Below the pieces are notes generated by a model. The model searched no databases, was not told the origin of the DNA, and worked only from the letters and a program-made list of their open reading frames with translations. Both the position numbers and the translations under genes were made by a program. 64,000 nucleotides of DNA from Planctomycetota bacterium. GTDB lineage: Bacteria; Planctomycetota; UBA8108; UBA1146; JAJFFE01. Below are positions 22,312-42,022 of the stretch, piece after piece; positions within the stretch are counted from its first letter, which is position 1; every line of letters begins with the position of its first letter. The stretch lies in NCBI GenBank assembly GCA_039028735.1, contig JBCCHQ010000016.1, forward strand, positions 1,758 to 65,757, written 5' to 3'.

Positions 22312-22495
22312 GATTCGCTCACTACCGGGATTCTCGACGGCCACAAAAGTCGTCGCCACGGAACACCAGCGACGCGTACACATGGGCAGACAGCGCGGCG
22401 GCTATCTACCCGTTCGTCGGCCGCTTCGGGAGTTGGCTGAAACACTTATGCGCGAGCCTGGCGCGCTCGCGACGTTCCGATAACTGAATTACCGG

Positions 22496-23911
22496 CTATT
22501 GCGGGAACTTGTTCCACGCTCGATCCCCGACGACGACGTTGCGGAAGCCGGCGAGACGCGAGTGCCGCCCCTTCTTGAGGTCGGACTCTTCGACGTGCAG
22601 TGTCATCGCGCGCGACCCGGGGAAGTTCTCGATGCGATCGCGAGAATAGTAGCCTTCCAGGTAGATGTCTCCTCCACCGCGGCGGCCGACCTGCAGCCAC
22701 TCGCCATCGCGAATGATCTCACCTCGTACGACCACAGTCGTCCGGTAGTCGACATGAACCGTGCCATAGAGATCCCCGAAGACAACGAGGGTCGTCCCGC
22801 GCTGGCAACGGACGACACCCGTGAGGTTTCCATCAATGCAGATCGTTCCAGAAGACTTCGCCGTAATGTTCCCCGCCATCTCACCGAGCACGACGACTCC
22901 CGCGTTACGCGAGTAGCGAAGTTCTCCAGCACGTCCAATACCAGCTTCCGCGTAGATCAACCCGCCGTGATCGAGCTGTAGCGACGTCAACAGCGGTGCA
23001 CCCAGAACGAGATGTCGATCTTTCGTGACGACAAGGTCGTGCGGCGGAAAATCGAGCTGGATCAGCTGCCCTTTGTTTACCCGCAGATAGTGATTGCGTC
23101 CGGGCATCTTGCCCAGCAGCTTGCGCAAGTCGCGCAAAGCCGTGTAGATGTCGGCAACTGGTTCGACACCCGTGACGACGTCGGAACTCATCCGCACCGC
23201 GCCCCCGTCGGGTACGGTCGGCAACTCTGCATAGGCCAGCACCACGCTGCGGTCGAGCGCATGCGTCGCGCGCTCCTCTTCGACGATGCGCGCCTTGTAG
23301 ACCCTGCCGTCACGGGCCCGAATCAAGACGACGCCGGTTCGTTCGTTGGCTGAGACCGAGCCATACAGCGTGACCTCGTCGGCCTCGCTGAGGTCGTCGG
23401 GCGCGTCGAGAAGCGCGTCGAAAACCTCGGGTTGCGTCGGCGGATTGCCAACGACAATCCGTGGATGATAGACCTGCTCGCTGCCTCCCGGCGTACCCAA
23501 TACGCAACGGCCACCACGTAAGTCGAAGCAGATCAGGTCGTGGCCACCCTTCACGGCTGACGTATCCGTTGCGTTGTCGGCGACGACGGTCGGGGAGCCA
23601 AACCGGTAGCGATCACCGATGCGCAGCACGACCTCGCCCGGCGCGAAAACGAGCGGCTGCGTGTCGCGGCGATCGACGGCGCCGTCGCCGCTATCGGCAG
23701 TTCGTTGCGGCGCGTCTACAAACGGCTGAAATGCAGGGTTGGCGGCCGGATCCACCTGACTCGTCGTGCGAGCGCTCGAGTGCGCGTCGAACCCGGCGGG
23801 CTGCGTCCGGTCCTCAGCGGGCCAATTCAACCAGCTCACGAACGCAAGGCACAACGCACCCGCCACGAATCCAACGCTGATCATCATGACTTTTGAGTGC
23901 GCGTCGCTCAC
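22496..23911 (-). CDS. Membrane-anchored hypothetical protein with beta-helix-like repeats
   Basis: N-terminal TM. C-terminal repetitive G/V/T-rich segments (GNITAKSSGTICIDGNLTGVVRCQRGTTLVVFGDLYGTVHVDYRTTVVVRG) suggest a parallel beta-helix. Confidence 0.45.
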   Translation of the reverse strand: MSDAHSKVMMISVGFVAGALCLAFVSWLNWPAEDRTQPAGFDAHSSARTTSQVDPAANPAFQPFVDAPQRTADSGDGAVDRRDTQPLVFAPGEVVLRIGDRYRFGSPTVVADNATDTSAVKGGHDLICFDLRGGRCVLGTPGGSEQVYHPRIVVGNPPTQPEVFDALLDAPDDLSEADEVTLYGSVSANERTGVVLIRARDGRVYKARIVEEERATHALDRSVVLAYAELPTVPDGGAVRMSSDVVTGVEPVADIYTALRDLRKLLGKMPGRNHYLRVNKGQLIQLDFPPHDLVVTKDRHLVLGAPLLTSLQLDHGGLIYAEAGIGRAGELRYSRNAGVVVLGEMAGNITAKSSGTICIDGNLTGVVRCQRGTTLVVFGDLYGTVHVDYRTTVVVRGEIIRDGEWLQVGRRGGGDIYLEGYYSRDRIENFPGSRAMTLHVEESDLKKGRHSRLAGFRNVVVGDRAWNKFPQ

Positions 23912-24022
23912 AGGTTTGGTCCCTTACAGGCTCCGGCGAAGAATCGTGACCTGCCACCAATAGAACGCGAAAATCACACCTCAGCCAAGAGAATCCCGGG
24001 TGAGAGATGCTGCGTATGCTGT

Positions 24023-24865
24023 CTACTGCCCGTGAGCGTTCGCATGATCTTCGGCAATGACGGCCGCAAGACGTTCGACAGCTGGCGTGAAGGCACTCTC
24101 CCACTCCGCTGCGCGTTCGGCGTTCCAACCCCAACCGACACCACGGATGCATGCCATGGCTTGCGCCCCGGCCCAGAAACCCTTCAGCTCCAGCACCCCG
24201 CTGCCTTCAGACCAAGCGATCGCCGTCTCTGCCGCTGTCTGCGCCAATACCGTTCCGGTGACGCTGCCGCCATCGCGGAGCACGAGCCGGCAGTCGCTGC
24301 CAACCGAACCCGGCACGCCAGACTCCGTCAGCCATTGCGCCAGTCCCGCTTCGTCGCGATAGAAGCGGTCTGCGTCAGGGAGCACCGGCGTGGGGCGCAG
24401 TAGCAGGAATGCACGCTTGTCGTGGCCAAAGTGGTTCTCGAGGTAGTGCCGCAGCGTGGCGAGCGCCATCTCCCACCCCGAGTCGATCCCCTCGTACTCG
24501 TTGTCCCACTCGGCACCATCTTGGAAGCCTGAGTTGACGAGGCGAATCACCGTCTTGCCCCCACGACTCTCAATGTCGATCTCGAGGACTCCGCGGGGGC
24601 GATCCGGCAGCTGCAGCGCCAGCACGAAACGTTTGTCTAGTTCCGCCTCCACGACTTGATAGGGAATTGGGTGCGGCACCATGTCGAACGACCACTCGAA
24701 CGTCGTGCCGACCTCGGGACTGCCTTTGGCATCATCGACGAACCACTGCGCCAACTTCGTCGGGTCGGTCCACGCGTCCCATACCTGGCGCGGCGTTGCG
24801 GTGGTCTCGATCTGCTTACGGACCTGGCGGCCACGACTGTCGTCATGCATTGGGTTGCTCCTCAT
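24023..24865 (-). CDS. SRPBCC/Aha1-domain protein (activator of Hsp90 ATPase homolog-like)
   Basis: N-terminal RQVWDAWTDPTKLAQWF typical of the AHSA1/SRPBCC fold. Paired with an ArsR regulator. Confidence 0.65.
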   Translation of the reverse strand: MRSNPMHDDSRGRQVRKQIETTATPRQVWDAWTDPTKLAQWFVDDAKGSPEVGTTFEWSFDMVPHPIPYQVVEAELDKRFVLALQLPDRPRGVLEIDIESRGGKTVIRLVNSGFQDGAEWDNEYEGIDSGWEMALATLRHYLENHFGHDKRAFLLLRPTPVLPDADRFYRDEAGLAQWLTESGVPGSVGSDCRLVLRDGGSVTGTVLAQTAAETAIAWSEGSGVLELKGFWAGAQAMACIRGVGWGWNAERAAEWESAFTPAVERLAAVIAEDHANAHGQ

Positions 24866-25583
24866 CGCTTTCCTGTGCGGTGTCTTTCAGTGGAGTCTTC
24901 TTCTTGGCGGTCATCTTCTGGGCGCTATCTGTGGGAGGGATCGGCCAAGAGCCCACGAGCAAGCGGTAAGGGCGTCCCGGTGCTTCCCCACCACTGCGGC
25001 CTTGCTGCGGCGACGTGAACCTCGCGACGACGTCGACAACCGCTTGTTGCAACGCTTCGGTGAACGCCGTCCGCTGCTGCGCACTCTCGAACCGAAACTC
25101 AGAAGACACCGACATCGTTGGCAACGGCTTGGCCGCGGCGGCAGCCTGCTCCCGCGCGACGGAGACTTCGTTCTGCAGCTGTGCTGCCAGCGCCAACAGG
25201 TAGGCGCTGCTGAAGGGGCCTGCGACCGTAGCGCGATCGAGGGCTGCCCCTCCCAACACCGCAGGCGCCAACAGGTAGGCGCGCGCCGTAGCGATGTAGC
25301 GCTGTTCGGTCATGCCGCGCTTCTTGCGGGTGCCGGCCTTGTGCAAGAAGCCGCAGCGATGTAGCTCGCGCACGTGGTAGTTGACTCGCTGCCGCGGCAC
25401 CCCCAAGCGCGTCGCAATGCCGGCTGCCGAAATCGGGGTGCGCGCTTCAGCGAGTACCGATGCCCGCAGCGGATGCAGCAGCGCCGCAGCTCGTGCCGGA
25501 TCGGCGACACACTCCAGCTCGCCGGCCTCGTTGGGCTTGGGATCGGCTTTGGAAGCCGCTTCTCTCGTCGATCTCGCGTTCAT
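24843..25583 (-). CDS. ArsR/SmtB-family transcriptional regulator
   Basis: HPLRASVLAEA...ISAAGIATRLGVPRQRVNYHVRELHRCGFL winged HTH. Confidence 0.7.
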   Translation of the reverse strand: MNARSTREAASKADPKPNEAGELECVADPARAAALLHPLRASVLAEARTPISAAGIATRLGVPRQRVNYHVRELHRCGFLHKAGTRKKRGMTEQRYIATARAYLLAPAVLGGAALDRATVAGPFSSAYLLALAAQLQNEVSVAREQAAAAAKPLPTMSVSSEFRFESAQQRTAFTEALQQAVVDVVARFTSPQQGRSGGEAPGRPYRLLVGSWPIPPTDSAQKMTAKKKTPLKDTAQESDEEQPNA

Positions 25584-25803
25584 GAAAGGGATTGTTGTCT
25601 AGAAAGCACTAGTTGTCAATAAAGCGCACGAGAGAGGTACTAAGTAACTTATTTTTGGTACCTTGCGCCCCTCCTGCGACCACCAGCGAGACCGTGTAGG
25701 CCGCCAGATCCAACTCCGGCAGATCCGCACCAGCCCAGCGGGTAGGATAAGAGCCGAACAGTTGCCCAACGCAGCCAGCAGATCAGAGAGGAGACGGCGG
25801 ACC

Positions 25804-26517
25804 ATGATCCAGCACAGCCCAAACCGACAGTTGCTCCAGGTCGCGGTGTTGATCGGGGTTTTCTCGCTCGTGCCGACAGCAACCTTCGGATTCATTCGCG
25901 GCGACGCCAACAGTGACGGTAGCGTCAGCATCGCGGATCCGATTGCCCTGTTGAACGTGCTGTTCGTGCCAGGTACTCCTCCGCTTGCGTGTGCCGACGC
26001 CGGCGACGGCAACGATGACGGCGCGCTCAACATCGCCGACGCCGTCTACGTGCTGAACGCGCTGTTCGTGCCTGGATCGTCACCGATTCCGGCGCCGTAC
26101 CCGACCAGCGGCACCGACCCAACGCCGGACTCGCTGCCGAGCTGTGCGCCGACCTCGATCCCGTTCCAGACCATTTCGATCGGCGACGACTCGGGTCATG
26201 CGACCGGGATCCAGACGGTGATCTACACCGCCAACGCGTGGAGCAGCTTCTGGTCGCTGCACAGCAACGCCCCCCTCCCCAGCGTCGACTTCAACCAAGA
26301 GATGGTCGTCGTCGTTCTGGCGATTGCGCCGAGTCTCGGGCACACGATCGACATTACGCAGATCGTCGAGAACGCCGGTGACCTCGAGATCCACTACACA
26401 GCGCTGCTGCCTGGCGCGTACCTGCCGATGCCGATAGAACCGCACCACGTGGTCCGCGCTCCGAGGACGTTTGGAAACAACGTCGTCTTCGTGCCGACGA
26501 TCATCGCGTTGCCGTAG
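25804..26517 (+). CDS. Secreted protein with N-terminal dockerin-like module
   Basis: RBS and signal peptide. GDANSDGSVSIADPIALLNVLF...DAGDGNDDGALNIADAVYVLNALF, followed by a PxP-rich Cys tail. Confidence 0.65.
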   Translation: MIQHSPNRQLLQVAVLIGVFSLVPTATFGFIRGDANSDGSVSIADPIALLNVLFVPGTPPLACADAGDGNDDGALNIADAVYVLNALFVPGSSPIPAPYPTSGTDPTPDSLPSCAPTSIPFQTISIGDDSGHATGIQTVIYTANAWSSFWSLHSNAPLPSVDFNQEMVVVVLAIAPSLGHTIDITQIVENAGDLEIHYTALLPGAYLPMPIEPHHVVRAPRTFGNNVVFVPTIIALP

Positions 26518-26574
26518 GCAGAACCGCCTGTCGCAACCGAAGAACGGCGCCTGAAGCGATAGAAAGGGCGTTCT

Positions 26575-27111
26575 TTGCCACAATCACCACAGTTAGACGA
26601 TGCGGAGCTGGACCGACGCTTCCTGACGCTGCGCATCATCTATGGCGTGCTGATCATGGGAGTCGTCACATTCGCGGCCGTAGCAGCGATCCTTCCAGCC
26701 GACGTGTTCGGCCCCAGCAACCTCGAACCGAACTCGTTCGACGACCGCTCTTTCGACAACGAGCCGCTCGACTCCGAACGCAGCGCGTCGCCGACACGCA
26801 TGCTGGTCTGGATCGCCATCGCATTGACCGCAACGACCGCGTTGCCTGCCGGGGCGCTGGCAGGCGCATTGGGGCGACGCAGTATCAGCGCAGGGCGACC
26901 GGCTGCAAGTCGCGTTTGGTCAAGCTACCAAGCAGCGAAGATCATGACGGCAGCTCTGATCGAAGCGCCGGGCCTCCTGTGGTGTGTGATCGCGCTGTTG
27001 ACCGGAGATGCGATCTACACGGCCGGCGCCGCGCTGTGTGCTGTGCTGATGCTCTGGAACTTTCCGAGCACGAACCAGTACGAAGACTGGGTGGCTGCTG
27101 CCGACCATTAG
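26575..27111 (+). CDS. Hypothetical membrane protein
   Basis: Three to four hydrophobic helices. No motif recognised. Confidence 0.35.
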   Translation: MPQSPQLDDAELDRRFLTLRIIYGVLIMGVVTFAAVAAILPADVFGPSNLEPNSFDDRSFDNEPLDSERSASPTRMLVWIAIALTATTALPAGALAGALGRRSISAGRPAASRVWSSYQAAKIMTAALIEAPGLLWCVIALLTGDAIYTAGAALCAVLMLWNFPSTNQYEDWVAAADH

Positions 27112-27116
27112 TCCTT

Positions 27117-28256
27117 CTACTGGCCGCGGGGCGCAAACGGTGCAAGATCCCACGCACAGTCACCGGTAAGAATCAGCTCAGACACCACCGCGGCAGTGAT
27201 CGGCGTCAACGCAACGCCGATCTTGTAGTGACCGACCGCAGCGAACAACCCATCGACGCCGGGCACGCAGCCAAGATAAGGGCGCAGATCCACAGACGAC
27301 GGACGCAACCCAGACCGGTGCTCGACGACTTGCGACGCCTGCAGCTCCGGGAGCAAGTCCACCGCACCGGCGAAGAGAAGCTCGCGTGCGGCCGGCGTCG
27401 GAGTGCGGTCGAAACCCGCTTCATGCTCGGTCGTCGCGCCAACGACAACCGTGTTCTGGTCGCGGCGCAGCACGTAGATCGCCCCGCAACGGATCAATCG
27501 ATCGCTGACGGGTTGCTGGACACGCAGCGTCAACGACTGCCCGCGAGCAGGCTCGGTCAACGTAGCATCCTGCACCGTACGAAGCTGCGCTGCATGCGCG
27601 CCGGCCGTCAGAAGCACCTGCTTGCACTCGATCGTTGCTGCGTCGTTGGCCAAGCGGACCCCGGTCACGCGAGCACCTGTCCCGCGATCGCCGGCGGTCA
27701 CGACATCTTCCACCTCGGCGTGTTCACGAATCTGCACCCCGCTCCGTTCACAGGCAGCGCGCAGCGCAGCGACCAGTCCGTCGACGTGCACCTGTGCCGT
27801 GATCCGGCAGTGAATCGCCCCATGCTCTGCAGGGCGTAGGCCGGGCTCGAGCTGCGCCACTTCGGCCGCGGTGATCACTTCTTGCGGCGCACAACCATCG
27901 ATCGCGTTCCACTGCTGCGCGCTGAGGCGCACCTCGTGGTGAGCGTTCTCGCGACGGCCAGCGCTGCGCAGTAACTCCAACCGTCCACGCCGCTCGTACA
28001 GCGGCTGCGTCGCAAACTGCGCGAGCTCTGCGCAGAAGTTGGGATAGAGAAGCAAAGATTCGCGCTGCAGTGCAGTCAGTGCATTCTGCCGCGTACTGAC
28101 CGAAGGGACCAACGCGCCCAGGGCGGCATACGACGCGCCGCTACCGCAACGGTCGGCTTCCAAAAGCGTAACTGCCCGTCCACCTTGAGCGAGACGCCAA
28201 GCAGTCGCGAGCCCCATCACGCCACCGCCAATGACGACAATATCCGGGGTCACTGG
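27117..28256 (-). CDS. FAD-dependent oxidoreductase (glycine oxidase ThiO / D-amino-acid oxidase family)
   Basis: DIVVIGGGVMGLATAWRLAQGG Rossmann FAD motif. DAO-family length. Start uncertain (GTG near 28256 or TTG/ATG at 28298). Confidence 0.7.
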   Translation of the reverse strand, partial: PVTPDIVVIGGGVMGLATAWRLAQGGRAVTLLEADRCGSGASYAALGALVPSVSTRQNALTALQRESLLLYPNFCAELAQFATQPLYERRGRLELLRSAGRRENAHHEVRLSAQQWNAIDGCAPQEVITAAEVAQLEPGLRPAEHGAIHCRITAQVHVDGLVAALRAACERSGVQIREHAEVEDVVTAGDRGTGARVTGVRLANDAATIECKQVLLTAGAHAAQLRTVQDATLTEPARGQSLTLRVQQPVSDRLIRCGAIYVLRRDQNTVVVGATTEHEAGFDRTPTPAARELLFAGAVDLLPELQASQVVEHRSGLRPSSVDLRPYLGCVPGVDGLFAAVGHYKIGVALTPITAAVVSELILTGDCAWDLAPFAPRGQ

Positions 28257-29344
28257 ACGGGGTCGACTTGCGGATTCGCCTGAGTGACGTCGTCCCATTC
28301 CAACGCGGCGCCGGCGGCGATGTCGCGCGCGGCACGACGGCCGACCACGCGATCCAGTGCCTCTGCGCCGATGCCCACCTGCGGACGGCGTGCCGACAAA
28401 TGCTCGCGAACGATCACGGACCCGGCTGCGATCGCGACCTTGGCCGTCAGACTCTTACGCACTTTCGGGATCGTCGGGACCTCTACTGCAGTGGGTTCCT
28501 TCTCTGCTCGCCCAACGGCTTCCGGTAGCTGTCGCAAAGCAGTCACCAGTTCTCCCAGTGCAGTAGGCTCCAACGAGGCGGCGTGGTCGGGCCCCTCGGC
28601 TTCGCGATCGTAGGTGAAGTGCTTCTCGATCACGACCGCGCCCAGCGCAGCTGCCATCACCGAAACCCAGATACCCGGAGTGTGGTCGGAGTAGCCAACA
28701 GGGCGGTCGAGGGCCGCGGCCAGAGTGGCAAGCACCGCAAGGTTCGCGTCCGGGACCGGACACGGATAGGCAGTCGTACAATGCATGACGACGATGTCGC
28801 GCGCGCCTGCGCCTTCGAGCCAACCCACGGCGCGCTGCACTTCAGGCAAGGTTCCCATCCCTGTTGCAAGAAGCACCGGCAGCCCGGTTGCCGCCACTCG
28901 CTCGAGGAGCAAGGGGTTCGTCAGGTCCGCCGACCCAACCTTGAATGCTGGCACGAGCGGCGCCAAGACGTCGACCGCCTCGACGGTGTGAGGAGTCGAA
29001 AGAAAGAGTATGCCGCGTTCGTCGCATACGTCCTTGAGCACAGCGAACGCATCCTCTGCCAGCTCGAGTGCCGCCAACAGCTGTCGTTGCGTCGCTGCCG
29101 TCTTGCCGCGTTTTTGGTACTCGACCAGCGGCGCGGCGTCGGTAACGAGATCGTCGGTGCGAAACGTCTGGAACTTGACGGCGTCGGCGCCCGCAGCGAC
29201 CGCAATGTCGATCAGTCGCAGCGCCGTATCGAGATCTCCGTCATGGTTGACCCCAGCTTCAGCGATGACGAACGGACGCTCGCCGCTTTGAAGCAGCCGA
29301 ACACCGATCGCGACGGAGCGCTCGCGGCCTGACTTCTCGCTCAT
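28250..29344 (-). CDS. NeuB-family nonulosonic acid synthase (sialic/legionaminic/pseudaminic acid synthase-like) with SAF domain
   Basis: VIAEAGVNHDGDLDTALRLIDIAVAAGADAVKFQTF..., GYSDHT, and a C-terminal SAF (antifreeze-like) domain. Start at MSEKSG. Confidence 0.8.
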   Translation of the reverse strand: MSEKSGRERSVAIGVRLLQSGERPFVIAEAGVNHDGDLDTALRLIDIAVAAGADAVKFQTFRTDDLVTDAAPLVEYQKRGKTAATQRQLLAALELAEDAFAVLKDVCDERGILFLSTPHTVEAVDVLAPLVPAFKVGSADLTNPLLLERVAATGLPVLLATGMGTLPEVQRAVGWLEGAGARDIVVMHCTTAYPCPVPDANLAVLATLAAALDRPVGYSDHTPGIWVSVMAAALGAVVIEKHFTYDREAEGPDHAASLEPTALGELVTALRQLPEAVGRAEKEPTAVEVPTIPKVRKSLTAKVAIAAGSVIVREHLSARRPQVGIGAEALDRVVGRRAARDIAAGAALEWDDVTQANPQVDPVQ

Positions 29345-29406
29345 GGAATTCGCCTTCCGTTCCCTGGTCTGCAGGGTATCGCGTCCAGCAACTCGCGAGA
29401 AGGGCA

Positions 29407-29440
29407 CAAAAAAACCCGGGCGCCGCTGAGCGGCGTCCGG
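29407..29440 (-). terminator. Intrinsic terminator downstream of the Cys/Lys repeat-protein gene
   Basis: On the minus strand: hairpin cccggacgccgc-tcag-gcggcgcccggg followed by TTTTTTT (plus-strand aaaaaaacccgggcgccgctgagcggcgtccggg). Confidence 0.5.
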
Positions 29441-29462
29441 GTTTGCGTTTCGCTGGCAGCGC

Positions 29463-30440
29463 TTAGCTGGCCGGCTTGACCTCGACGGGCTTGGCGGTCT
29501 TCGCCGACTTGCCACAACCACCGCAGCAACCGTTGGCCTTCTCAGCCTTGGCAGCGACGGGCTTCATCTTGGTAGCGGTCATGAACTTCGCGAGCTTGTC
29601 CTTGCTCGACTTGCAGCCGTTCGCGGCGCACTTCTCGAGGTAGGCAACCTTCTTCGCGAGGTCCTTCGAGCACTCCGTGCCGAACTCCTTCTTCAGAGCC
29701 GTGAGCATCGCGCCGGACTTGGCGCAGCCACCATCGGAGCCCTTGCAGAGCTTCGCGACCATAGCGGAGACGCTGACCGGCTTGGCCGCGACGGCGGCCT
29801 TGTCCATGCCGAACTCTTTCGTCAGCTTGGCAAGCTTGTCCACACTCGACTTGCAGCCCTTGCCGGCACACTCTTCGAGGTAAGCAATCTTCTTCGACAT
29901 CCCAGCGATGTCCTTGGAGCACTCCGAGCCACAGGCCTTGCTGAGCGCGGCGAGCTTCTCTGCGGACTTGGCGCAGCCCTTCTCGGCACCACAGGCGAGC
30001 TTGGCGACCATTTCGCTGAGCTTCATCTCGTTGCATGCGACACCCTTGTCGCCACAGGCGCTGGCGCAGTCCTTCTTCGCAGCGGCGGCCTTGTCGCCAC
30101 AGGCGCTGGCGCAGTCCTTCTTCGCAGCAGCGGCCTTGTCGCCACATGCGCTGGCGCAGTCCTTCTTCGCAGCTACGGCCTTGTCGCCACAGGCGCTGGC
30201 GCAGTCCTTCTTCGCGGCAACGGCCTTGTCGCCACAGGCGCTGGCGCAGTCCTTCTTCGCAGCAACGGCCTTGTCGCCACAGGCAGTCGCGCAGTCTTTC
30301 TTCGCGACGGCCTTGTCACCGCAGGCGGTGGCACAGTCCTTCTTCGCGGCGGCAGCCTTGGCTTTCTCAGGACAACACTGAGCATCCACTCCGGCGGCAA
30401 CGCCGAAAACAAATAGACAGACGAAGAGTAGCTTCTTCAT
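29463..30440 (-). CDS. Secreted Cys/Lys/Ala-rich tandem-repeat protein (nine copies of KKDCA[ST]ACGDKA[VA]AA)
   Basis: Signal peptide MKKLLFVCLFVFGVAAGVDA. CCPEK, then 9 near-perfect 13-14-aa repeats. C-terminal half has 14 more Cys in CG/GC pairs (AKLACGAEKGCAKS, CAGKGCKSS, CAANGCKSS) and ends GCCGGCGKS. Confidence 0.75.
   Translation of the reverse strand: MKKLLFVCLFVFGVAAGVDAQCCPEKAKAAAAKKDCATACGDKAVAKKDCATACGDKAVAAKKDCASACGDKAVAAKKDCASACGDKAVAAKKDCASACGDKAAAAKKDCASACGDKAAAAKKDCASACGDKGVACNEMKLSEMVAKLACGAEKGCAKSAEKLAALSKACGSECSKDIAGMSKKIAYLEECAGKGCKSSVDKLAKLTKEFGMDKAAVAAKPVSVSAMVAKLCKGSDGGCAKSGAMLTALKKEFGTECSKDLAKKVAYLEKCAANGCKSSKDKLAKFMTATKMKPVAAKAEKANGCCGGCGKSAKTAKPVEVKPAS
30031..30360. 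repeat. Roughly 42-bp coding tandem repeat array (about 8-9 units) within the repeat-protein gene
   Basis: cttgtcgccacaggcgctggcgcagtccttcttcgcagc(a/g)gcggc reiterated head-to-tail with few substitutions. Confidence 0.8.
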
Positions 30441-30813
30441 GGGTCTCCTCTAGGAAAGGTTTCTAACCGCGACGGGTCGCTATCCAACGCTCCCGTAGGT
30501 ACGACGTCGGGCCCCGAAAAGTTGGCCCCGAAGTCAAAGTCTCTCAGAAAAAGTATCGGCCGGCGACGCGCTTCGTAACGATTTCGGCGCTACACCGCAG
30601 TTTGCTGTACCCGATTTCTGAATACAGCCCCCCATGGGCTGAATTCACAGTTTAACACTTAGCAGCGTCCATGCCAGAGGCTGCGGGATTCCTCGCGAAC
30701 CACCCGACCTCGCTGCCGGTCGAAAGCTAAGAGCCTACTTCCAAGGCACTTGGAACAGCCAGAGCTGCCCCTGACACCGATCGCGGGATCCTCCAACGCC
30801 AGTAGGAACGGGG

Positions 30814-31122
30814 CTACGGTCCAGCGGGTTCCCAGCGATAGTCCGAAAGGGGCAACCGGTTACCCCGAAAGCGGACCCCTTCCTGCTCCAGAAGAGCCTG
30901 TTGGCGCCCCGGAGACTCCTTTTCGTCGGTCGAGCATTTGCCTTGGGCGTTCACGACTCGGTGCCAGGGGACGTTACGCGGGGCAGTGTTGAGGGCCCAC
31001 CCAACGGCGAGCGGAGAAATCCGAGCCGCCATCGCCTGGGAAATCTGCCCATAGGTCATGACGCGCCCGGGCGGAATGCCGCGGACGAACTCGTAGACCT
31101 CTTCCCAGACCGGCCCACCCAT
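30814..31122 (-). CDS. Alkyltransferase-like protein (ATL; MGMT DNA-binding domain with Trp replacing the catalytic Cys)
   Basis: MGMT C-terminal-domain motifs (RVMTYGQISQAMA, NTAP.NVPWHRVVNAQG). PWHR in place of PCHR is the ATL hallmark. Confidence 0.7.
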   Translation of the reverse strand: MGGPVWEEVYEFVRGIPPGRVMTYGQISQAMAARISPLAVGWALNTAPRNVPWHRVVNAQGKCSTDEKESPGRQQALLEQEGVRFRGNRLPLSDYRWEPAGP

Positions 31123-31126
31123 CGCC

Positions 31127-32095
31127 CTACGTCCCCAGCACTTGCTGCACTACTGCGAGGATCTGATCGTGATAGCGACCATTGCTGGCGATCACGCCGC
31201 GATTCTCCTCCAGCTGCCGGCCGCGACCGAAGTCGAGTGGCAGGCCGCGGACGTCCGTGACCCGTCCTCCAGCCTCTTCCATGACAATGGCTCCGGCGGC
31301 GTGGTCCCAAATCTTCTCGCGGTAGTCGGCTCGCGTCGGCAAACGCAGGTAGATCTCTGCGTCTCCGCGCGCCAGCGCACCGTACTTGACCTGCGAGTCG
31401 AGCCGCACCGGCTCGTTGGCAATCCCCAACTTCCGAGCGATCTGCGCCGACGCGCTCTGATCGGAGTGCCCACTCTCGACCGATTCACAAAAGCGCGCCT
31501 GGGCGAGGTCGGCGACGGCACTGACCGAACACGTTGTCTCGGTCGTATCGGCGCCGAACAGGGACTGCGAAACGGTACCTTGCCCACGCTCGGCGACGAA
31601 CAGCACGCCGTCGCCGTCCGGGCCAGCGAGTTGCGGGCAGCCAAGCACACCTAGTTGGACTTGGCCATCCTCGATGAGCCCGAGCGCGATCGCGTACTGT
31701 TCCTTGCGCAAGAATCCCTTCGTGCCGTCGATCGGGTCCAACGTCCAGAACCGACCACTCGCGGCACTGCCACCCAAGTCGATCCATGCGAGTACCTCTG
31801 CGCTCGAGGCGCCCTCGCGAACCGTCGTCACTTGCGCAACAACCTTCTCCAACACCTCTGCTTCCTGGCGGAGCTCGCGCGCATCTTCTTCACCGACCAC
31901 AGGGATCTGCGCGGTCGCCGCCGCCAGCTGTGCGCAGACCACCGCTTGCGACGCATAGTCGGCTACCGTGACGGGGCTCCGATCCTTCTTCTCGAGAGTG
32001 TCGGGGTGCACCCAGTGCTGCTGGACGTTGCGACAAACCATCGCAGCGGCGCGGACCGCCGCAATCCCGGCCGCTCGTTCTTGCTGAAGCCCCAT
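31127..32095 (-). CDS. Inositol monophosphatase-family phosphatase, 3'(2'),5'-bisphosphate nucleotidase (HAL2/CysQ)-like
   Basis: WTLDPIDGTKGF and other IMPase metal-binding motifs. Five-nt gap to ATL. Confidence 0.7.
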   Translation of the reverse strand: MGLQQERAAGIAAVRAAAMVCRNVQQHWVHPDTLEKKDRSPVTVADYASQAVVCAQLAAATAQIPVVGEEDARELRQEAEVLEKVVAQVTTVREGASSAEVLAWIDLGGSAASGRFWTLDPIDGTKGFLRKEQYAIALGLIEDGQVQLGVLGCPQLAGPDGDGVLFVAERGQGTVSQSLFGADTTETTCSVSAVADLAQARFCESVESGHSDQSASAQIARKLGIANEPVRLDSQVKYGALARGDAEIYLRLPTRADYREKIWDHAAGAIVMEEAGGRVTDVRGLPLDFGRGRQLEENRGVIASNGRYHDQILAVVQQVLGT

Positions 32096-32290
32096 GCGTC
32101 ACCCTCCTTGGATTCTCTTTGTCCGCACACTTTCGTATGCGGCCTCTCCCCGTGAGCAGCTATCCTGCGTAGAATGCCGCGTCTGCAGCGGAGCACAACC
32201 CATCCCGACCAGAAGCTGACAACTCGTGAAATCACGACAAACGGCGAGATCCTGGCGAACCGACAACGGCGAACGGCGAAGACAAGCCCC

Positions 32291-33319
32291 GTGGTAGATG
32301 AAACAGCCAGCAACCCGCAGCGCGCGACAGTGGTGCTGGGTGCCAATTCGTTCTCGGGACAAGACTTCGTCGACCTGTTGATCACCACAACCAACGACCG
32401 GGTCTTCGGGATCAGCCGCTCGCAGCAGCGCGACGCAACGTTCTCGAGCTACCTCAGACACGACCCTGACGTTCTCGCCCAACGCTTCGAGTACCACGCG
32501 CTCGACATGAACCACGACATGCCGGCGATCCTGGCCCTGCTCGATCGCTGGCGGCCTCAGCGCATCATCAACTTCGCTGCGCAGAGCGAAGTGGCTCCGA
32601 GTTGGGATCACCCAGAACACTGGTACCAGACCAACACCGTGGCTCTGTCGCAGCTCGTCAACCACCTCCGCGACTGCGACTACCTGCAACGCTACGTGCA
32701 CATTTCGTCGCCAGAGGTCTATGGATCTTGCGTCGGCGAGGTGCTCGAAGATGCACCCGCCAACCCCAGCACACCGTACGCGGCTTCGAAGGCGGCCGCG
32801 GACATGTTGCTCGCGGTGTTTCGCAAGCAGTACGATTTCCCGCTGCTGACGATCCGCGCCACCAACGTCTACGGAGCCCGGCAGCAGCTGTTCAAGATCA
32901 TTCCGCGCACGGTGATCTATCGCCGCCTGGGCAGGAAGATCCCGCTCCACGGCGGTGGTCACGCCGTGAAGTCGTACATCCACATCCGAGACGTCTCCCG
33001 CGGCGAACTGGCCGTGCTCGACCACGGCACAGTCGGGGAGACCTACCACATCTCTCCCGATCAGGGTGTCGCGGTGCGCGATGTCGTCGGCACGATCTGC
33101 AGCACACTCGGCGAAACGCTCGCAGACGCGACGACCCGTGTCGGCGAGCGCCCTGGACAGGATGCCGCCTACGTCATCGATTCGACGAAGATCCGCGAGG
33201 AACTTGGCTGGCAGCCTACGATCCCACTCGCAACCGGGATCAGTGAAGTTGTCGCGTGGATCGACGAACGCTGGCGGTCGATTTCTGAATTGCCACACGA
33301 GTATCTGCACGTGCCCTAG
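32291..33319 (+). CDS. NDP-sugar 4,6-dehydratase/epimerase (extended SDR)
   Basis: VVLGANSFSGQDFV (GxxGxxG-like), YAASKAAAD (YxxxK). Start is an uncertain GTG. Confidence 0.65.
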   Translation: MVDETASNPQRATVVLGANSFSGQDFVDLLITTTNDRVFGISRSQQRDATFSSYLRHDPDVLAQRFEYHALDMNHDMPAILALLDRWRPQRIINFAAQSEVAPSWDHPEHWYQTNTVALSQLVNHLRDCDYLQRYVHISSPEVYGSCVGEVLEDAPANPSTPYAASKAAADMLLAVFRKQYDFPLLTIRATNVYGARQQLFKIIPRTVIYRRLGRKIPLHGGGHAVKSYIHIRDVSRGELAVLDHGTVGETYHISPDQGVAVRDVVGTICSTLGETLADATTRVGERPGQDAAYVIDSTKIREELGWQPTIPLATGISEVVAWIDERWRSISELPHEYLHVP

Positions 33320-33352: not shown

Positions 33353-35701
33353 TTGTCATCGCGCGCGAAATCGGTTCCCTTCAGTCACATGACTCGCGAC
33401 GACAAGCCAGACATCTCTGCGACCGAGACGGCTCTGGAGTCCGCGCTCGCAGACGGGCAACTCGAAGCTGCACAGCAGCTGCTCGCGGCCTACGGCGAAA
33501 CGCCCCCGGCAGCGCTCGCGCGGCCTGCGGCCCGGCTGTGGATGGAACGACAGCGCTGGCAGCGCGCCGCGCAGGCCTGGGCCGGTGTCACGTCAGCGAC
33601 AACAGAGGAACGCTGCAACGAACGCCTGTGCCGCAATCTCGCTGTGCTCGAAACCAACCACCCCACGATCGCTGGCGCCGTCGTCGCTGCCACGAACGAC
33701 GACCGCTTCACGCTACACACCAGCGACAGTGGCGCCCTGACGATTGCTTTCGAGCGTGCCGACGGTTCACAACTCCTTCTGTCGGCACAGGAGGATCCGA
33801 TCGCCGACGTGCGGCAGGTCGTCGCTGGCCTACAATCGCACCTTGACGAGTGCGCCACGCTGGCATTGTGCGGCATCGGCGACGGCTACCTGTTGGCAGA
33901 GCTTGCCCAGCAAGAGAGCCGCAGTGCCCTTGGGCTCGAATCGCAGATCTACGTGATCGTGCCCGATCCCGCGGCGCTACTGACGTGCCTCATGTTGCAC
34001 GACTATTCCGGTGACGACGGCCCGTTGTGCCAACCTCGGTTTCGCTGGTACGTCGGCGCCGATTGGCTGACGGCACTGCAAACGGACCTCGCCGCGGACC
34101 TGTATCTCCCGCTGCCGAAGGTGCAGGTTCAGCTGCCACCCCACGGCACGGATACGGCCAAGCAGCTCGAAGCGGCTACGGACAAACTGCAGCGCCGCGA
34201 TGATCGCTTTCGGCGACGGATCGACCAACACTACACCACCGTCGAACCAACGCAGCTGGCCGCGTTGCTGGGGGACGACCCGCCCCGGCGCCCGCGGATC
34301 GCTCTGGCAACGACCAGATTCACAACAGTGCTCCAGTACGCGACCCGCGACCTGGCCACGACGCTTGGCGGACTCGGCTGGGACGTGGAAATCATCATCG
34401 AACCAACCACCGAGCACCGCGTTACGAAGCCCGCAATTCGTGAAGTGTTGGCACGCTTTCGACCCGACTTCTTCCTGCAGATCGATCACTTGCGGCACGA
34501 GCACGGCGACCTGCTGCCGGCGGCTCTGCCGTTCATCTGCTGGGCGCAAGATCTGCTCCCCAACCTCCTCGACGCGAACGCGGCCGCGGCGACAGGTCCC
34601 TACGACTACGTGTTGACGTTCGACGTACCGCTGTTCGTCGACCAATACGGCTACCCGCAGGAACGCTGCATCGCGATGCCGTTCATGTTGGCGCTCCCCG
34701 CGAGAACGGGCCAGGGTACAGCGGCAGCGAGCCCGGCGACCCACGACCTCGTGTACGTTTCCAACATGTCCAGCACCCCAGAGCGCGCCTTTGAGTGGCA
34801 ACGCAATGGCGCGCCGGCCGCGCTGCGATCGTTGTTGGACGCGTGTTGGGAACAGCTCCGACAACAGTATGCCGGGGACTTCCCGGTCAGCCAAAGGGTC
34901 GTCGGACACGGCGGCATCACAGACTTGCTGAACGCAACCGCGACGCAGACGGGCGTGCACTTGCCCACTGCTACGGCGGCGCGGCTGGCGAGTCACATCT
35001 TGTTTCCCCTCAACAGCCTTCTCTTTCGCCAGGAGGGGCTGCGCTGGGTTGCAGCGGCCGCTTCCGAACTCGGCAGCGACCTCGCCGTGTACGGCAGAGG
35101 TTGGGAACTGCACCCGGACTTTGCGCCGTACGCGCGCGGCGTCGTCGAGCACGGGGCCGCCCTGCAGGAACTGACGCAGCGCAGCCGCATCAACTTGAAT
35201 CTCGAACCGTATCCGTGCGTGGCGCACCAGCGGCTGCTGGACGGCCTTGCCGCAGGTGGCTTCTTCCTGATCCGTGAGCACACGTCGAACCGAGTCCTGC
35301 AGCAGCTGGCGAATCTCCTCGACCAGTATGCAACCCCAGCGGTTCACGACCTGGCCAGCGCCCGCAGCCAATTGCCTGCAGCCCAGCAAGGTGCGCTCGA
35401 AGAACTCGTAACCCTGTGCTTGCCCCTGTGCTACGCAACTCCAGCAGATCCGGTGCGGTTGGTACGCTCCTATCAAGAAGCCAAAGTGCTGATTTCGCAG
35501 CAGACATCGCTCCCCTACCTCGACGCGGTTTCGTTCGCTTCTCCAGCGCAGTGCCGCGTCCGCATCGAGCATTTTCTCGGCGCCGCCAAGACCCGCCAAT
35601 CGATCGCGGCCGCGCAGTGGGACAACATTCGCGATCGGCTCTCGTTTCCGGTTGCCATGAAGCGGGTGATCGGCGAGATTCGGCGACATCTAGCGGGCTA
35701 G
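33353..35701 (+). CDS. Large (782 aa) putative glycosyltransferase, Maf (DUF115/MptE-like) and/or CgeB-like
   Basis: Soluble and large. C-terminal region RINLNLEPYPCVAHQRLLDGLAAGGFFLIREH resembles the CgeB/GT1-like C-terminal domain. Context with NeuB-like synthase. Weak, recall-based. Confidence 0.45.
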   Translation: MSSRAKSVPFSHMTRDDKPDISATETALESALADGQLEAAQQLLAAYGETPPAALARPAARLWMERQRWQRAAQAWAGVTSATTEERCNERLCRNLAVLETNHPTIAGAVVAATNDDRFTLHTSDSGALTIAFERADGSQLLLSAQEDPIADVRQVVAGLQSHLDECATLALCGIGDGYLLAELAQQESRSALGLESQIYVIVPDPAALLTCLMLHDYSGDDGPLCQPRFRWYVGADWLTALQTDLAADLYLPLPKVQVQLPPHGTDTAKQLEAATDKLQRRDDRFRRRIDQHYTTVEPTQLAALLGDDPPRRPRIALATTRFTTVLQYATRDLATTLGGLGWDVEIIIEPTTEHRVTKPAIREVLARFRPDFFLQIDHLRHEHGDLLPAALPFICWAQDLLPNLLDANAAAATGPYDYVLTFDVPLFVDQYGYPQERCIAMPFMLALPARTGQGTAAASPATHDLVYVSNMSSTPERAFEWQRNGAPAALRSLLDACWEQLRQQYAGDFPVSQRVVGHGGITDLLNATATQTGVHLPTATAARLASHILFPLNSLLFRQEGLRWVAAAASELGSDLAVYGRGWELHPDFAPYARGVVEHGAALQELTQRSRINLNLEPYPCVAHQRLLDGLAAGGFFLIREHTSNRVLQQLANLLDQYATPAVHDLASARSQLPAAQQGALEELVTLCLPLCYATPADPVRLVRSYQEAKVLISQQTSLPYLDAVSFASPAQCRVRIEHFLGAAKTRQSIAAAQWDNIRDRLSFPVAMKRVIGEIRRHLAG

Positions 35702-35783
35702 AGGGGATTCTGCGAGCCGGGCAGGGACTGCCGTGGCTGCGCTGCCGCCAGGTCGACGGCCACTGGGAACGGGGGGAGCTCCA

Positions 35784-36842
35784 ATGCCATCAGGCAACCG
35801 GCACCAAGACAAGGTCTGCTTGGTCACGGGCGGTGCGGGCTTCATTGGCAGCCACCTTGTCGACCGACTCATCGCTGCTGGGCATCGCGTCCGAGTCATC
35901 GACAACCTGGCATCTGGCAACCTCGACAATCTCGCGCCGCACAAGAACGATCCACGCCTACGCTTCGTCGAAGCCGACATCGCAACCACGTCGGAACTGA
36001 CGTCACTGGCGGCCGGCGTGCAGTGGTTCTTCCACCTCGCGGCGCTCGCCGACATTGTCCCATCGATCGAACAACCGCAGCGCTACCATCAGGCCAACGT
36101 CAACGGCACGATCGCCGCGCTGGAAGCCGCTCGAGCAAGTGGCGTCGAACGCTTCGTCTACGCTGCATCTTCATCGTGCTACGGCCTCCCCGACCAATAC
36201 CCGACCCCTGAGACCGCGCCGTGTCGGCCGATGTATCCGTACGCGCTGACGAAGATGATCGGGGAACAGTACGTACAACATTGGCAGCAGTGCTACGGGT
36301 TGCCGACCGCTTCGCTGCGGTTCTTCAACGTGTACGGTCCACGAGCACGTACCAACGGTACCTACGGCGCCGTCTTCGGTGTGTTCCTGGCGCAGAAGCT
36401 CGCCGGCAAAGCGTTCACGGTTGTTGGTGACGGCAAGCAGTCGCGCGACTTCACGTTCGTCACCGACATTGCATCGGCGCTGGTCGCTGCCGCTCGCCGC
36501 GCAGCTCCCGGCGCAATCTACAACGTCGGCTCGGGTGGCACGTACACGATTCAGCACCTCGTGGAGTTGCTGGGCGGGCCCGTCGAGTATGTCCCCGAGC
36601 GGCCCGGCGAACCTAGGTGCACGTTCGCCGACACGACCAAGATCACCGAAGAACTCGGATGGCAGCCACAAGTTTCTTTCGAAGACGGGGTCGCTGAGAT
36701 GCTGCGCTGCATCGAACAGTGGCGCGAAGCTCCCGTCTGGGACCGGTCTTCGATCGATGTCGCCACGCGCGACTGGTTCCGCTACCTCGGTCCCAAGAAC
36801 GAGACCAACGCCGCGATCGCCGGCGCGGGAGATCCTGCATGA
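35784..36842 (+). CDS. NAD-dependent epimerase/dehydratase (UDP-glucuronate decarboxylase / UDP-hexose 4-epimerase-like)
   Basis: GGGGGAG RBS. VCLVTGGAGFIGSHLVDRL, YAASSSCYG, YALTKMIGEQY (YxxxK). Confidence 0.75.
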   Translation: MPSGNRHQDKVCLVTGGAGFIGSHLVDRLIAAGHRVRVIDNLASGNLDNLAPHKNDPRLRFVEADIATTSELTSLAAGVQWFFHLAALADIVPSIEQPQRYHQANVNGTIAALEAARASGVERFVYAASSSCYGLPDQYPTPETAPCRPMYPYALTKMIGEQYVQHWQQCYGLPTASLRFFNVYGPRARTNGTYGAVFGVFLAQKLAGKAFTVVGDGKQSRDFTFVTDIASALVAAARRAAPGAIYNVGSGGTYTIQHLVELLGGPVEYVPERPGEPRCTFADTTKITEELGWQPQVSFEDGVAEMLRCIEQWREAPVWDRSSIDVATRDWFRYLGPKNETNAAIAGAGDPA

Positions 36843-38392
36843 CTCGTCCGTCCAATTCCAACTGGCAGCGCAGCGGGGACAAAGTCATCGCGCTGGAGGC
36901 CCTCGCGGACGTCACGGAGAACGCCCGTGCGTGCGGCCAGAAAATCGTGCACTGCCATGGGGTCTTCGACCTATTGCACGTTGGGCACCTCAGGCACCTC
37001 GAAGCAGCCCGCCGATTCGGAGACCTCCTGGTCGTCACCGTGACTCCCGATGCGTTCGTCAACAAGGGACCCGGCCGCCCTGCCTTCAGCGCCGAGTCCC
37101 GCGCCGAAGCACTGGCCGCTCTCGCCAGTGTCGACTTCGTCGCGATCAACCGCTGGCCCACCGCTGTCGAGACCATCGGCATGCTGCGCCCTCACGCTTA
37201 TGCGAAGGGGTCTGAGTACGCCGACAAGAACGCAGACCGCACTGGCGGCATCATCGACGAGGAAGCGGCACTGAGCGGGCATGGCGGCCGCCTGGTGTTC
37301 ACGGACGAAGCCACATACAGCTCGTCACACTTGCTCCAGCACCACACCGACATGTACTCACAAGAAGTGAGGACGTTTCTCGGCGACTTTCGGGAAGAGT
37401 ACCCTTCCGCGGAAGTGCTAGCCGCTGTCGACGCGGCGGCCTCGCGCCGAGTCCTGGTCATCGGTGAGACGATCATCGACGAGTATCAGTACTGCGATGC
37501 CATCGGCAAGAGTTCCAAGGAACCGACCCTGGCCGTGAAACCGTATTCGGTGGAACGCTTTGGCGGCGGCATCCTGGCTGTCGCGAACCACGTCGCGCCG
37601 TTCTGTGAGCAAGTTACCGCACTGACCGCTATCGGCAGCCAGGATGGGTCACGCGCGTTCGTGGAAGGAGCTCTGGCGGCCAGCGTACAGCCAAGGTTCA
37701 TCGAACTCGAGCACGCACCGACAATCACGAAACGACGTTTCATCGATCGCTACTTCTTCCACAAACTTTTCGAAGTCTACGAGATGGACGACAGTGAACT
37801 CACTGGGCCGGACGAGGCGGCGCTACTGGACGCTCTGGACGAAGCGCTGCCGCAGCACGACGTCGTCATCGTAGTCGACTATGGGCACGGCCTGCTGACG
37901 CCTCGCGTCGTCGACAAGCTGACCAAGCAGGCGCCCTTCTTGGCTGTCAACGCCCAGTCGAACGCCGGCAACCTGGGATACAACACGGTCTCGAAGTACC
38001 CCCGGGCGGACTACGTGACCCTTGCCGAGAACGAGCTCCGCCTGGACAGCCGCGACCGCCATGGGCCCCTGCCGCCACTCGCGCGACGGGTCTCTGAGCG
38101 CTGTGGTGCCCGCACCGTCGCGGTCACACGCGGCGCGCAGGGTTGCCTGTTGTTCGATCGCAGTGCCGGCTTCGTCGAAGTGCCGGCGCTGGCAGGCACG
38201 ATCAAAGATCGCATGGGAGCCGGCGATACATTCATGGCGATCACTGCCCTGACCGTCGCTGGGGAAGCCCCAGTTGCCGTCAGTGGGTTCTTGGGCAACG
38301 CCATGGCTGCAGGAACGGTGGCCACTGTCGGGCATCGTGGCTGTATCGACAAAGCGCCGTTCGTGCGACACGTCGAATGCCTATTGAAGTAG
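36839..38392 (+). CDS. Bifunctional sugar-phosphate nucleotidyltransferase (HIGH-motif, cytidylyltransferase-like) / PfkB-family sugar kinase; HldE-like with reversed domain order
   Basis: N-terminal CHGVFDLLHVGHLRHLEAAR (HxGH nucleotidyltransferase) and C-terminal PfkB kinase motifs (GAGDTF). ATGA overlap with the upstream epimerase. Confidence 0.75.
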   Translation: MTRPSNSNWQRSGDKVIALEALADVTENARACGQKIVHCHGVFDLLHVGHLRHLEAARRFGDLLVVTVTPDAFVNKGPGRPAFSAESRAEALAALASVDFVAINRWPTAVETIGMLRPHAYAKGSEYADKNADRTGGIIDEEAALSGHGGRLVFTDEATYSSSHLLQHHTDMYSQEVRTFLGDFREEYPSAEVLAAVDAAASRRVLVIGETIIDEYQYCDAIGKSSKEPTLAVKPYSVERFGGGILAVANHVAPFCEQVTALTAIGSQDGSRAFVEGALAASVQPRFIELEHAPTITKRRFIDRYFFHKLFEVYEMDDSELTGPDEAALLDALDEALPQHDVVIVVDYGHGLLTPRVVDKLTKQAPFLAVNAQSNAGNLGYNTVSKYPRADYVTLAENELRLDSRDRHGPLPPLARRVSERCGARTVAVTRGAQGCLLFDRSAGFVEVPALAGTIKDRMGAGDTFMAITALTVAGEAPVAVSGFLGNAMAAGTVATVGHRGCIDKAPFVRHVECLLK

Positions 38393-38453
38393 TGACAATG
38401 AGCCGCGAACTTGCTGTGTGCGACGAACAAGAGGGGTTGAGGGGAACGAACGC

Positions 38454-41884: not shown

Positions 41885-42022
41885 GTATCCTCACTGAAGG
41901 ACTTGCAGCCCTGGAACTGGGGCACGCACCTCCCGTTACCGGCCTGTTCCGAAGGACGATGTTAGACTTATACACCTCGTCCTGTACTCAGTTGCTCCCG
42001 CCGCACTCAAGAGTAGAAGTCG

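Follow-up and report, generated by a model that had tools for sequence, protein, structure and literature searches.

An unnamed cysteine-rich protein family of Planctomycetota, with predicted Sec signals, paired helical-hairpin domains and variable Cys-pair repeats, as a putative extracytoplasmic metal buffer

A stretch of 64,000 nucleotides from a Planctomycetota bacterium (assembly GCA_039028735.1, contig JBCCHQ010000016.1, positions 1,758 to 65,757 of the forward strand), hereafter the window, carries on its minus strand, at 29463-30440, a gene for a Cys-rich protein that we call the window protein. It combines a Sec-type signal peptide, an array of seven CxxxC repeat units and two homologous helical-hairpin domains, and it belongs to a small unnamed family, built on a newly definable domain, that has so far been seen only in Planctomycetota and is apparently restricted to them. 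The architecture and the family are shown, as is, by heuristic rules, the export signal; as a putative function we propose an extracytoplasmic, metallothionein-like thiolate metal buffer, a tentative reading. The initial annotation of this DNA had already proposed metallothionein-like metal binding, which on the sequence evidence remains plausible but unproven.

The gene is a real ATG open reading frame (ORF), as both the ORF list and the sequence indicate. The coding sequence is complete, with 325 codons and a stop, and its frame is backed by homologues; overlapping ORFs of 201, 157 and 143 aa in other frames were dismissed as by-products of the repeats, since the family homology fixes the reading frame. 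The gene looks native, because its GC content (62.8%, with 81.5% at third codon positions) is close to that of the window (63.0%). The description of the product as rich in Lys and Ala, poor in aromatic residues and devoid of His holds: the full protein contains 76 Ala, 62 Lys, 32 Cys and 27 Gly, no Arg, His or Trp, and eight aromatic residues (six Phe and two Tyr), five of which lie in the mature chain.

That the product is secreted, as first annotated, agrees with a classical signal peptide at aa 1-20, MKKLLFVCLFVFGVAAGVDA (30381..30440, minus strand), predicted by the heuristic -3/-1 rule to be cut before Q21. The cleavage site is thus VDA/Q, the sequence reading MKKLLFVCLFVFGVAAGVDA/QCCPEK, and the mature protein has 305 aa, 31 Cys (about 10%) and a net charge of +26. 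Its N-terminus, QCCPEKAKAAAA (aa 21-32; 30345..30380, minus strand), bears a vicinal Cys pair at mature residues 2-3. The arrangement recurs in the family: about 30 of the 34 members checked have one of the small residues A, G or S at -1, in most cases with Q next and an early Cys after it, and an early mature Cys motif (QCC, Q[DE]CxxC or GDDCC) is present in nearly all. The lipobox pattern [LVI][ASTVI][GAS]C does not occur in the signal peptide, whose sole Cys, C8, lies in the sequence LFVC inside the hydrophobic region. From this and from the predicted VDA/Q cut, the window protein is probably not a lipoprotein on a heuristic reading; Ala-Cys junctions are present in a few relatives (P0024, P0027 and P0033). 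After Sec export the protein is predicted to work in the periplasm or on the cell surface. The haem-attachment motif CxxCH is absent from the window protein and from all 34 family members, in agreement with the earlier view that this is not a c-type cytochrome.

The mature N-terminus is followed by seven tandem KKDCA(T/S)ACGDK(A/G)(V/A)A(A/C) units (aa 33-136; 30033..30344, minus strand), each with one CxxxC pair, as seen with Tandem Repeats Finder (TRF) and by listing the units. The initial annotation had counted nine repeats of 13-14 aa or 42 nt, with 18 Cys in the array and 14 after it. The period is in fact 15 aa or 45 nt, only the first unit measuring 14 aa or 42 nt (TRF output: 30044-30347, period 45, 6.8 copies, 91% matches); the array holds 14 Cys, at a density of 13%, and another 15 lie downstream of it. 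Nor does the protein end at GCCGGCGKS, as had been reported, but runs 15 residues further, AKTAKPVEVKPAS. The core KKDCA.ACGDK is unchanged in all seven units, and the seven codon differences that separate unit 1 from unit 2 are without exception synonymous; both observations argue for selection on the unit at the peptide level, that is, they point to purifying selection acting on the repeat unit. Units 3-6, by comparison, look like recent duplications because they are only one or two codons apart. A single-sequence AlphaFold2 (AF2) model of the full protein was poor (predicted local distance difference test, pLDDT, 46), with tentative long helices in the repeat region (pLDDT 52-66). In the 15-residue unit, C4, C8, A12 and A15 follow one another at spacings of 4, 4, 3 and 4, a 15/4 periodicity which, speculatively, would keep Cys and Ala on one helix face if the array were helical.

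The same genome is found in an independent Logan assembly of run SRR22824298, which matches the window at 100% on both flanks of the array. One Logan contig (L004) corresponds to window positions 30235-32547 at 100% identity and ends in unit 3; a second (L005) corresponds to 22250-30073, also at 100% identity, and begins in unit 7. Both contigs break off within the array, which leaves 161 bp (30074-30234, units 3-6) covered by the window assembly only. The exact copy number of seven thus depends on one assembly, and both gene flanks are independently confirmed. Contig breaks within a 45-bp repeat are expected of a short-k-mer assembly, as Logan is assumed to be, and do not indicate an artefact. 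Units 3-6 differ from one another in their combinations of synonymous variants, so that reads covering about three units would probably suffice to put them in order. As to the suggested copy-number variation, it is found at the level of the family, where close relatives carry one unit or four; an exact 45-mer search of metagenome contigs returned no population variants.

The C-terminal half, first described as a loose series of CG...GC Cys pairs, is made of two helical-hairpin domains of about 80 aa. Core domain 1 (aa 138-220; 29781..30029, minus strand; profile score 115 bits) comprises two alpha-hairpins with K-G-C-x-x-S turns and has Cys at positions 150, 156, 170, 174, 191 and 196. Core domain 2 (aa 221-301; 29538..29780, minus strand; 124 bits), again of two alpha-hairpins, has Cys at 232, 239, 257, 271 and 276. 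A C-terminal tail with a CCxxC cluster, ANGCCGGCGKSAKTAKPVEVKPAS (aa 302-325 plus the stop codon; 29463..29537, minus strand), completes the protein; such a Cys-rich tail is present in about two thirds of the listed family members. The two segments were recognised as copies of one domain from the alignment with P0001, a protein of 274 aa that is encoded on a 1.2-kb contig of TARA Oceans and shares 41% identity over window protein aa 106-286. No further copy of the domain was found elsewhere in the window.

The consensus of 69 domain copies is xLSxxxAxLxxxAxKGCxxSxAKLAALxKxxGTxCxxxLxxKVxxLExxAxxGCxxSxxKLAxL, in which conservation reaches at least 90% at G18, C19, S22, E49, G55, C56, S59 and L63. 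Homology also links the first half of the domain to the second (hhalign probability 97.9%, E = 3.5e-13), and the basic unit is therefore a hairpin of about 37 aa, of which the window protein has four. With a 38-sequence alignment of the two-domain family, AF2 predicted eight helices at a pLDDT of 83.5 (model residues 4-16, 20-32, 41-56 and 60-72 in domain 1; 87-99, 103-116, 121-136 and 140-152 in domain 2); the relative orientation of the domains is uncertain, because the predicted template-modelling score is 0.54. In this model each turn consists of the three residues K-G-C, so that the invariant Cys is the N-cap residue of the next helix and the Ser falls at N3. These two N-cap Cys are kept in 68 and 66 of the 69 copies, respectively. 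An optional Cys 5-7 residues before the turn occurs at both hairpins in six of the 69 copies, including both domains of the window protein. In the usual up-down packing the turns lie at the same end, and we infer that four Cys would cluster at one pole of each window domain.

Such hairpins also recall Sel1 or tetratricopeptide (TPR)-like repeats, and one could suppose that the four of them form a small solenoid akin to the Helicobacter cysteine-rich proteins (Hcp), which would bind a protein, peptidoglycan or a glycan, with Cys stapling the hairpins and the repeats acting as spacers. The repeat length of about 37 aa fits this idea, the motif A-A-x-G-C-x-x-S-x-x-K-L-A-x-L resembles the Sel1 pattern AA.xG...A...LG, and in both window domains the second Cys, 5-7 residues before each N-cap Cys, could close the turn. 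However, the Pfam Sel1/TPR models, PF08238 included, match none of 38 family members at E<=1, and no Sel1-like repeat (SLR) or Hcp chain came out of a PDB sequence-profile search at E<=10. The extra turn Cys, found at both hairpins in so few copies, do not co-occur between the two hairpins (Fisher p = 0.35), and an interaction scaffold would leave the recurrent, independently evolved Cys-pair tails unexplained. We therefore consider this alternative unlikely.

The geometry of the turns bears on another possibility, namely that the thiolates at the helix N-termini and in the tails act as a sacrificial buffer scavenging oxidants or electrophiles, or carry persulfide or polysulfide sulfur in the periplasm. 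Indeed, the near-invariant Cys sits at a helix N-cap with Ser at +3, and an N-cap Cys/Ser geometry lowers the Cys pKa in CxxC/CxxS redox proteins; furthermore, the Gly-flanked Cys of the tail (GCCGGCG) loosely recall the GGCGG arm of SoxY. Nevertheless, no thioredoxin-fold, Sox or rhodanese similarity was found, no conserved redox or sulfur-oxidation partner gene lies nearby, and a non-recyclable scavenger would be costly to make, all of which renders this role improbable.

A profile built from four domain copies was used for an exhaustive HMMER search of 1.84 billion cluster representatives, and it defined a family of 55 representatives at a cutoff of E<=1e-3, of which 39 pass E<=1e-10 and 13 pass E<=1e-30. 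A genome scan gave two further loci of the same architecture (L002 and L003) in Planctomycetota metagenome-assembled genomes, and a scan of metagenome proteins added only two relatives (L014 and L015). A word-indexed homology search was nearly empty (one match with the full protein, P0001; none with the probe A1 and one with A2), because low-complexity words swamp the index, which made the exhaustive search necessary. Every named member is a "hypothetical protein" from Planctomycetes/Planctomycetota, and the earlier statement that the protein falls in no named family stands: Pfam and NCBIfam scans of the window protein at E<=10 returned no named family and no metallothionein family, and Pfam gave nothing consistent on 38 members. 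A match to Phage_scaffold (E = 0.29) was discarded as noise. The PDB sequence-profile search returned nothing below E = 0.03 and Foldseek against the PDB nothing at E<=0.001. Two short proteins at E of about 3e-5, P0045 and P0047, with a signal ending in Ala before Cys, repeat A-E-G-G-C-E-x-S-x-A-x-L-I-A-x-A-K hairpins and may belong to this hairpin superfamily as a remoter branch.

Most full-length members follow one plan: a Sec signal (usually A-x-A/Q), an early Cys motif, 2-4 domains, and Cys-rich low-complexity segments before and/or after the domains. The window protein conforms to it, with at least two G-C-x-x-S domains of about 75-80 aa, a signal peptide and Cys-rich terminal segments. 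The Cys-rich segments are non-homologous between lineages, each with at least one Cys and most with a Cys pair. The L002 protein has TKEAAAKGGDGC four times and GGCCGDKTKAAGTEAK four times, the L003 protein has KKTDGCCDAAKATAV about 14 times, the repeat of P0036 is DCDGCEGGAKTAK, and tails of other members read CGDCTDCSDCADC, CGDCTDCSDCADCPGK and CGDCEDCEDCEECEKCCEDEDECC. Relatives of the window unit itself are found as KDDCASKCEG in P0001, KKDDCASACGATVAAKA in P0004 and KDDCGSTCDDAKTVKA in P0041. At the same position, P0001 carries a single CxxxC unit, and P0041 and the complete L014 ORF (1682-2608) carry four each, the N-termini being otherwise near-identical. The window protein is the most repeat-expanded known member. 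In another branch, the 90%-identity cluster of P0008 has members of 356, 347 and 273 aa, suggesting variation in repeat number or in fragment length.

It is this recurrence that leads us to favour a metal buffer: Cys pairs in a Lys-rich context are the single trait that independently evolved repeats have kept, and they come with a random Cys parity, frequent CC motifs and a metallothionein-like composition. In the 34 family proteins we counted 102 CxxxC, 101 CxxC, 46 CC and 6 CxC motifs. Vicinal disulfides are rare and strained, and CC is typical of metallothioneins. Lys far exceeds Arg across the family (62/0 in the window protein, although its genome has 63% GC, and for example 45/0, 72/0 and 52/2 in others), with almost no His or aromatic residues; classical metallothioneins likewise have Lys but almost no Arg, His or aromatics. 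The Cys number is even in 18 and odd in 16 of the mature proteins (with heuristic starts), and even in 35 and odd in 34 of the domain copies. This lack of preference for even numbers argues against all Cys being engaged in intramolecular disulfides. In the mechanism we propose, the Cys pairs of the repeats and tails would act as chelators of soft metals (Cu(I), Zn, Cd or Hg, for example), adjacent Lys would offset the thiolate charge, and the hairpin domains, besides supplying fixed sites, would maintain solubility or provide an anchor. The capacity could then be tuned over evolutionary time as Cys-pair units are gained and lost.

Several points weigh against a metal buffer. Neither the sequence nor the fold searches detected a metal-binding family, Sec export to an oxidising compartment normally makes disulfides of nearby Cys pairs, and the Cys density of the array lies well below the roughly 30% of true metallothioneins. 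Moreover, the gene neighbourhood is not conserved, metal-related neighbours being seen at only two of about ten loci and one of these being absent from a second genome that encodes the identical protein. At L008 genes for an RND membrane-fusion protein and pump, with a weak CzcB_C match, immediately follow that of the relative, and at L011 the relative lies 3.8 kb from an HMA P-type ATPase, which is absent at L012, where the protein is identical; these are weak context hints only.

The oxidising compartment leads directly to the main rival, a disulfide-cross-linked structural or adhesive protein of the envelope, in which the Cys pairs would be oxidised after export, unpaired Cys would link molecules into an envelope layer or a holdfast, and the many Lys could contribute to adhesion or to cross-linking. 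In its favour, the whole family shows Sec signal peptides, and an oxidising destination fits this model as well as it does metal binding. Odd Cys counts, as common as even ones, fit intermolecular bonds, and planctomycete envelope preparations are classically described as cystine-rich. The ribosome-binding site and adjacent terminator hairpin of the gene (see below) fit, but do not show, independent and perhaps high expression of a structural protein. On the other hand, Cys positions are unconserved apart from the two N-cap Cys of each domain, whereas structural disulfide frameworks are usually conserved, and both repeat sequence and copy number vary between lineages. The abundance of vicinal CC is also unfavourable, as is the low Pro content, unlike that of the Cys/Pro-rich planctomycete wall proteins, and the empty Pfam scans include no match to any envelope-protein family. 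A cross-linked envelope protein is accordingly possible, though in our judgement rather unlikely.

The initial annotation had also considered binding of polyanions. The mature window protein is indeed strongly basic, and a NeuB-family gene adjoins its own, so that one could imagine a polycationic binder of DNA, polyphosphate, lipopolysaccharide or acidic glycans. However, mature members span net charges from -10 to +29, with many close to zero, and the L002 repeats are neutral. A basic character is not a family trait, which speaks against polyanion binding as the family function, and the glycan context is not conserved either; we regard this last reading as highly improbable.

The putative metal buffer is encoded by what the expression signals support as a stand-alone transcription unit. 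A Shine-Dalgarno-like GAGGAG, read directly from the sequence, lies 5 nt 5' of the ATG (30445..30450, minus strand), and the ORF layout leaves a 373-bp intergenic region upstream (30441..30813, minus strand), which presumably bears the promoter. This region and a terminator of the gene's own had been correctly noticed. The terminator-like hairpin (29408..29441, minus strand), which starts about 20 nt past the stop codon, has a stem of 5+6 bp with one A/C mismatch and a loop of 3 nt, and is followed by U7; its minimum free energy is -30.2 kcal/mol (z = -2.68). A simple terminator scan missed it because of the mismatch. A sigma-70 promoter scan of the 373-bp region returned no site, such a scan being uninformative for Planctomycetota, and an Rfam search of the whole window, this leader included, returned no RNA family.

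The gene had been placed inside a glycan-biosynthesis island, and this is only partly borne out. Immediately downstream lie a NeuB-family gene with a SAF domain, sialic/legionaminic-acid-synthase-like (28250-29344, minus strand), and then a gene for a DAO-family FAD oxidoreductase (27117-28298, minus strand), whose start is overlapped by about 50 nt by the NeuB gene; Logan contig L005 contains both genes as well. Upstream are genes for an MGMT-type DNA-binding protein and an inositol-monophosphatase-family protein. The real glycan cluster is a run of sugar-nucleotide genes (35733-42177, plus strand) that is separate from the Cys-rich gene and starts about 5 kb upstream of it. This run encodes a GDP-mannose-4,6-dehydratase/epimerase-family protein, a bifunctional PfkB-kinase and cytidylyltransferase (HldE-like), a second epimerase and the N-terminal subunit of a transketolase. 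The other immediate neighbours are unrelated, and the relatives stand in entirely different contexts. Among the approximately ten loci compared no neighbour recurs, the genes next to relatives encoding kinases, LigD/Ku, a photolyase, a radical-SAM enzyme, Fic, MoxR/VWA, Cpn10 and others; and the window and L002 each have neighbouring ORFs of about 782 and 381 aa, which are not homologous between the two, so that there is no synteny. Given this lack of conservation, a functional link between the gene and glycan biosynthesis is not upheld.

Other genes of the window are recorded here as such. A gene for a B12-binding radical-SAM enzyme of 602 aa (20575-22383, minus strand) lies about 7 kb downstream of the Cys-rich gene, and a radical-SAM gene also directly follows the relative P0014 (L009), two cases being too few to call a link. 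About 4 kb downstream, at 24023-25583 (minus strand), the gene of an ArsR-type HTH_20 regulator overlaps that of an AHSA1/SRPBCC-domain protein; ArsR-family regulators are often metal sensors. The product of 16933-18273 (plus strand) has two 4Fe-4S dicluster motifs and CCG cysteine-rich domains, and resembles heterodisulfide reductase or GlcF. Four ORFs gave no Pfam match at E<=1e-5: 33353-35701 (plus strand, 782 aa), 32099-33310 (minus strand, 403 aa), 22496-23911 (minus strand, 471 aa) and 25663-26517 (plus strand, 284 aa). Gene calling on the Logan contig likewise gave the 471-aa ORF.

Handling of soft metals outside the cytoplasm by Cys-rich proteins is barely documented in bacteria, Csp1 being the main example, and the Planctomycetota envelope, in which Cys-rich proteins have long been noted, is unusual and poorly understood. 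The window protein and its phylum-restricted family, which combines a clear domain, conserved helix-cap Cys and evolvable Cys-pair arrays, offer a testable candidate, either for a periplasmic metal buffer or for a disulfide-linked envelope component, of interest to metallobiology and to planctomycete envelope biology, and the new domain definition can serve to annotate members that are now all labelled "hypothetical protein". With considerable doubt, we suggest that the window protein might be the first example of a class of Sec-exported metallothionein-like proteins peculiar to Planctomycetota, with a hairpin scaffold, N-cap thiolates and fast-evolving Cys-pair arrays. In such a class the extracytoplasmic capacity for Cu(I), Zn, Cd or Hg could be set by the copy number of the array.

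Compared with known systems, the window protein works like at most three kinds, the metallothioneins, Csp1 and the Hcp/Sel1 proteins, and is a demonstrable member of none. The Sel1-like proteins HcpB and HcpC are likewise secreted and built of tandem alpha-hairpins, each about 36-40 aa long, in which a small residue (Gly) occupies the turn and every repeat has its associated Cys. However, they have a disulfide pair per hairpin and no Cys-rich low-complexity tails, whereas the window family has a single invariant Cys per hairpin, and the searches described above, by PF08238 and against SLR chains, do not place it among them. The YTV-domain proteins of Rhodopirellula are Cys-rich planctomycete envelope proteins, from the same phylum and likewise exported. 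They are rich in Pro and Cys, in contrast to the Ala/Lys-rich, helical window protein, which has no YTV Pfam match.

Metallothioneins, including the bacterial SmtA/BmtA and MymT, share with the window protein a richness in Cys, the presence of Lys, an essential lack of Arg, His and aromatic residues, CC, CxxC and CxxxC motifs in a low-complexity K/S/G/A/D context, and modular repeats whose number varies with the lineage. Generically, the group (defined in PMC7558416) comprises small proteins of very high Cys content that lack aromatic residues and His and form metal-thiolate clusters; the composition of the mature chain, with 10% Cys, no His or Arg and five aromatic residues, fits this in part, and its size of 305 aa does not. 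Metallothioneins are moreover cytosolic and contain about 30% Cys, whereas the window protein is predicted to be Sec-exported, has a folded helical-hairpin core and only about a third of that Cys density, and no sequence similarity to a metallothionein family was found.

The exported helical precedent is Csp1, a Tat-exported copper store formed by a Cys-lined four-helix bundle (PMC7558416). Like the window protein, it is all-helical and extracytoplasmic, with many Cys, including i/i+4 (CxxxC) pairs on one helix face. The window protein falls outside the Csp (DUF326) family: its signal is of the Sec type with no twin-arginine motif, and DUF326/Csp gave no Pfam match. In Csp1 the Cys run along the bundle core, whereas in the window family the conserved Cys lie at the hairpin turns and the Cys-pair repeats outside the folded domain. 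If the array is helical, its Cys may line a right-handed coiled coil or a bundle that would store metal, somewhat as Csp1 does.

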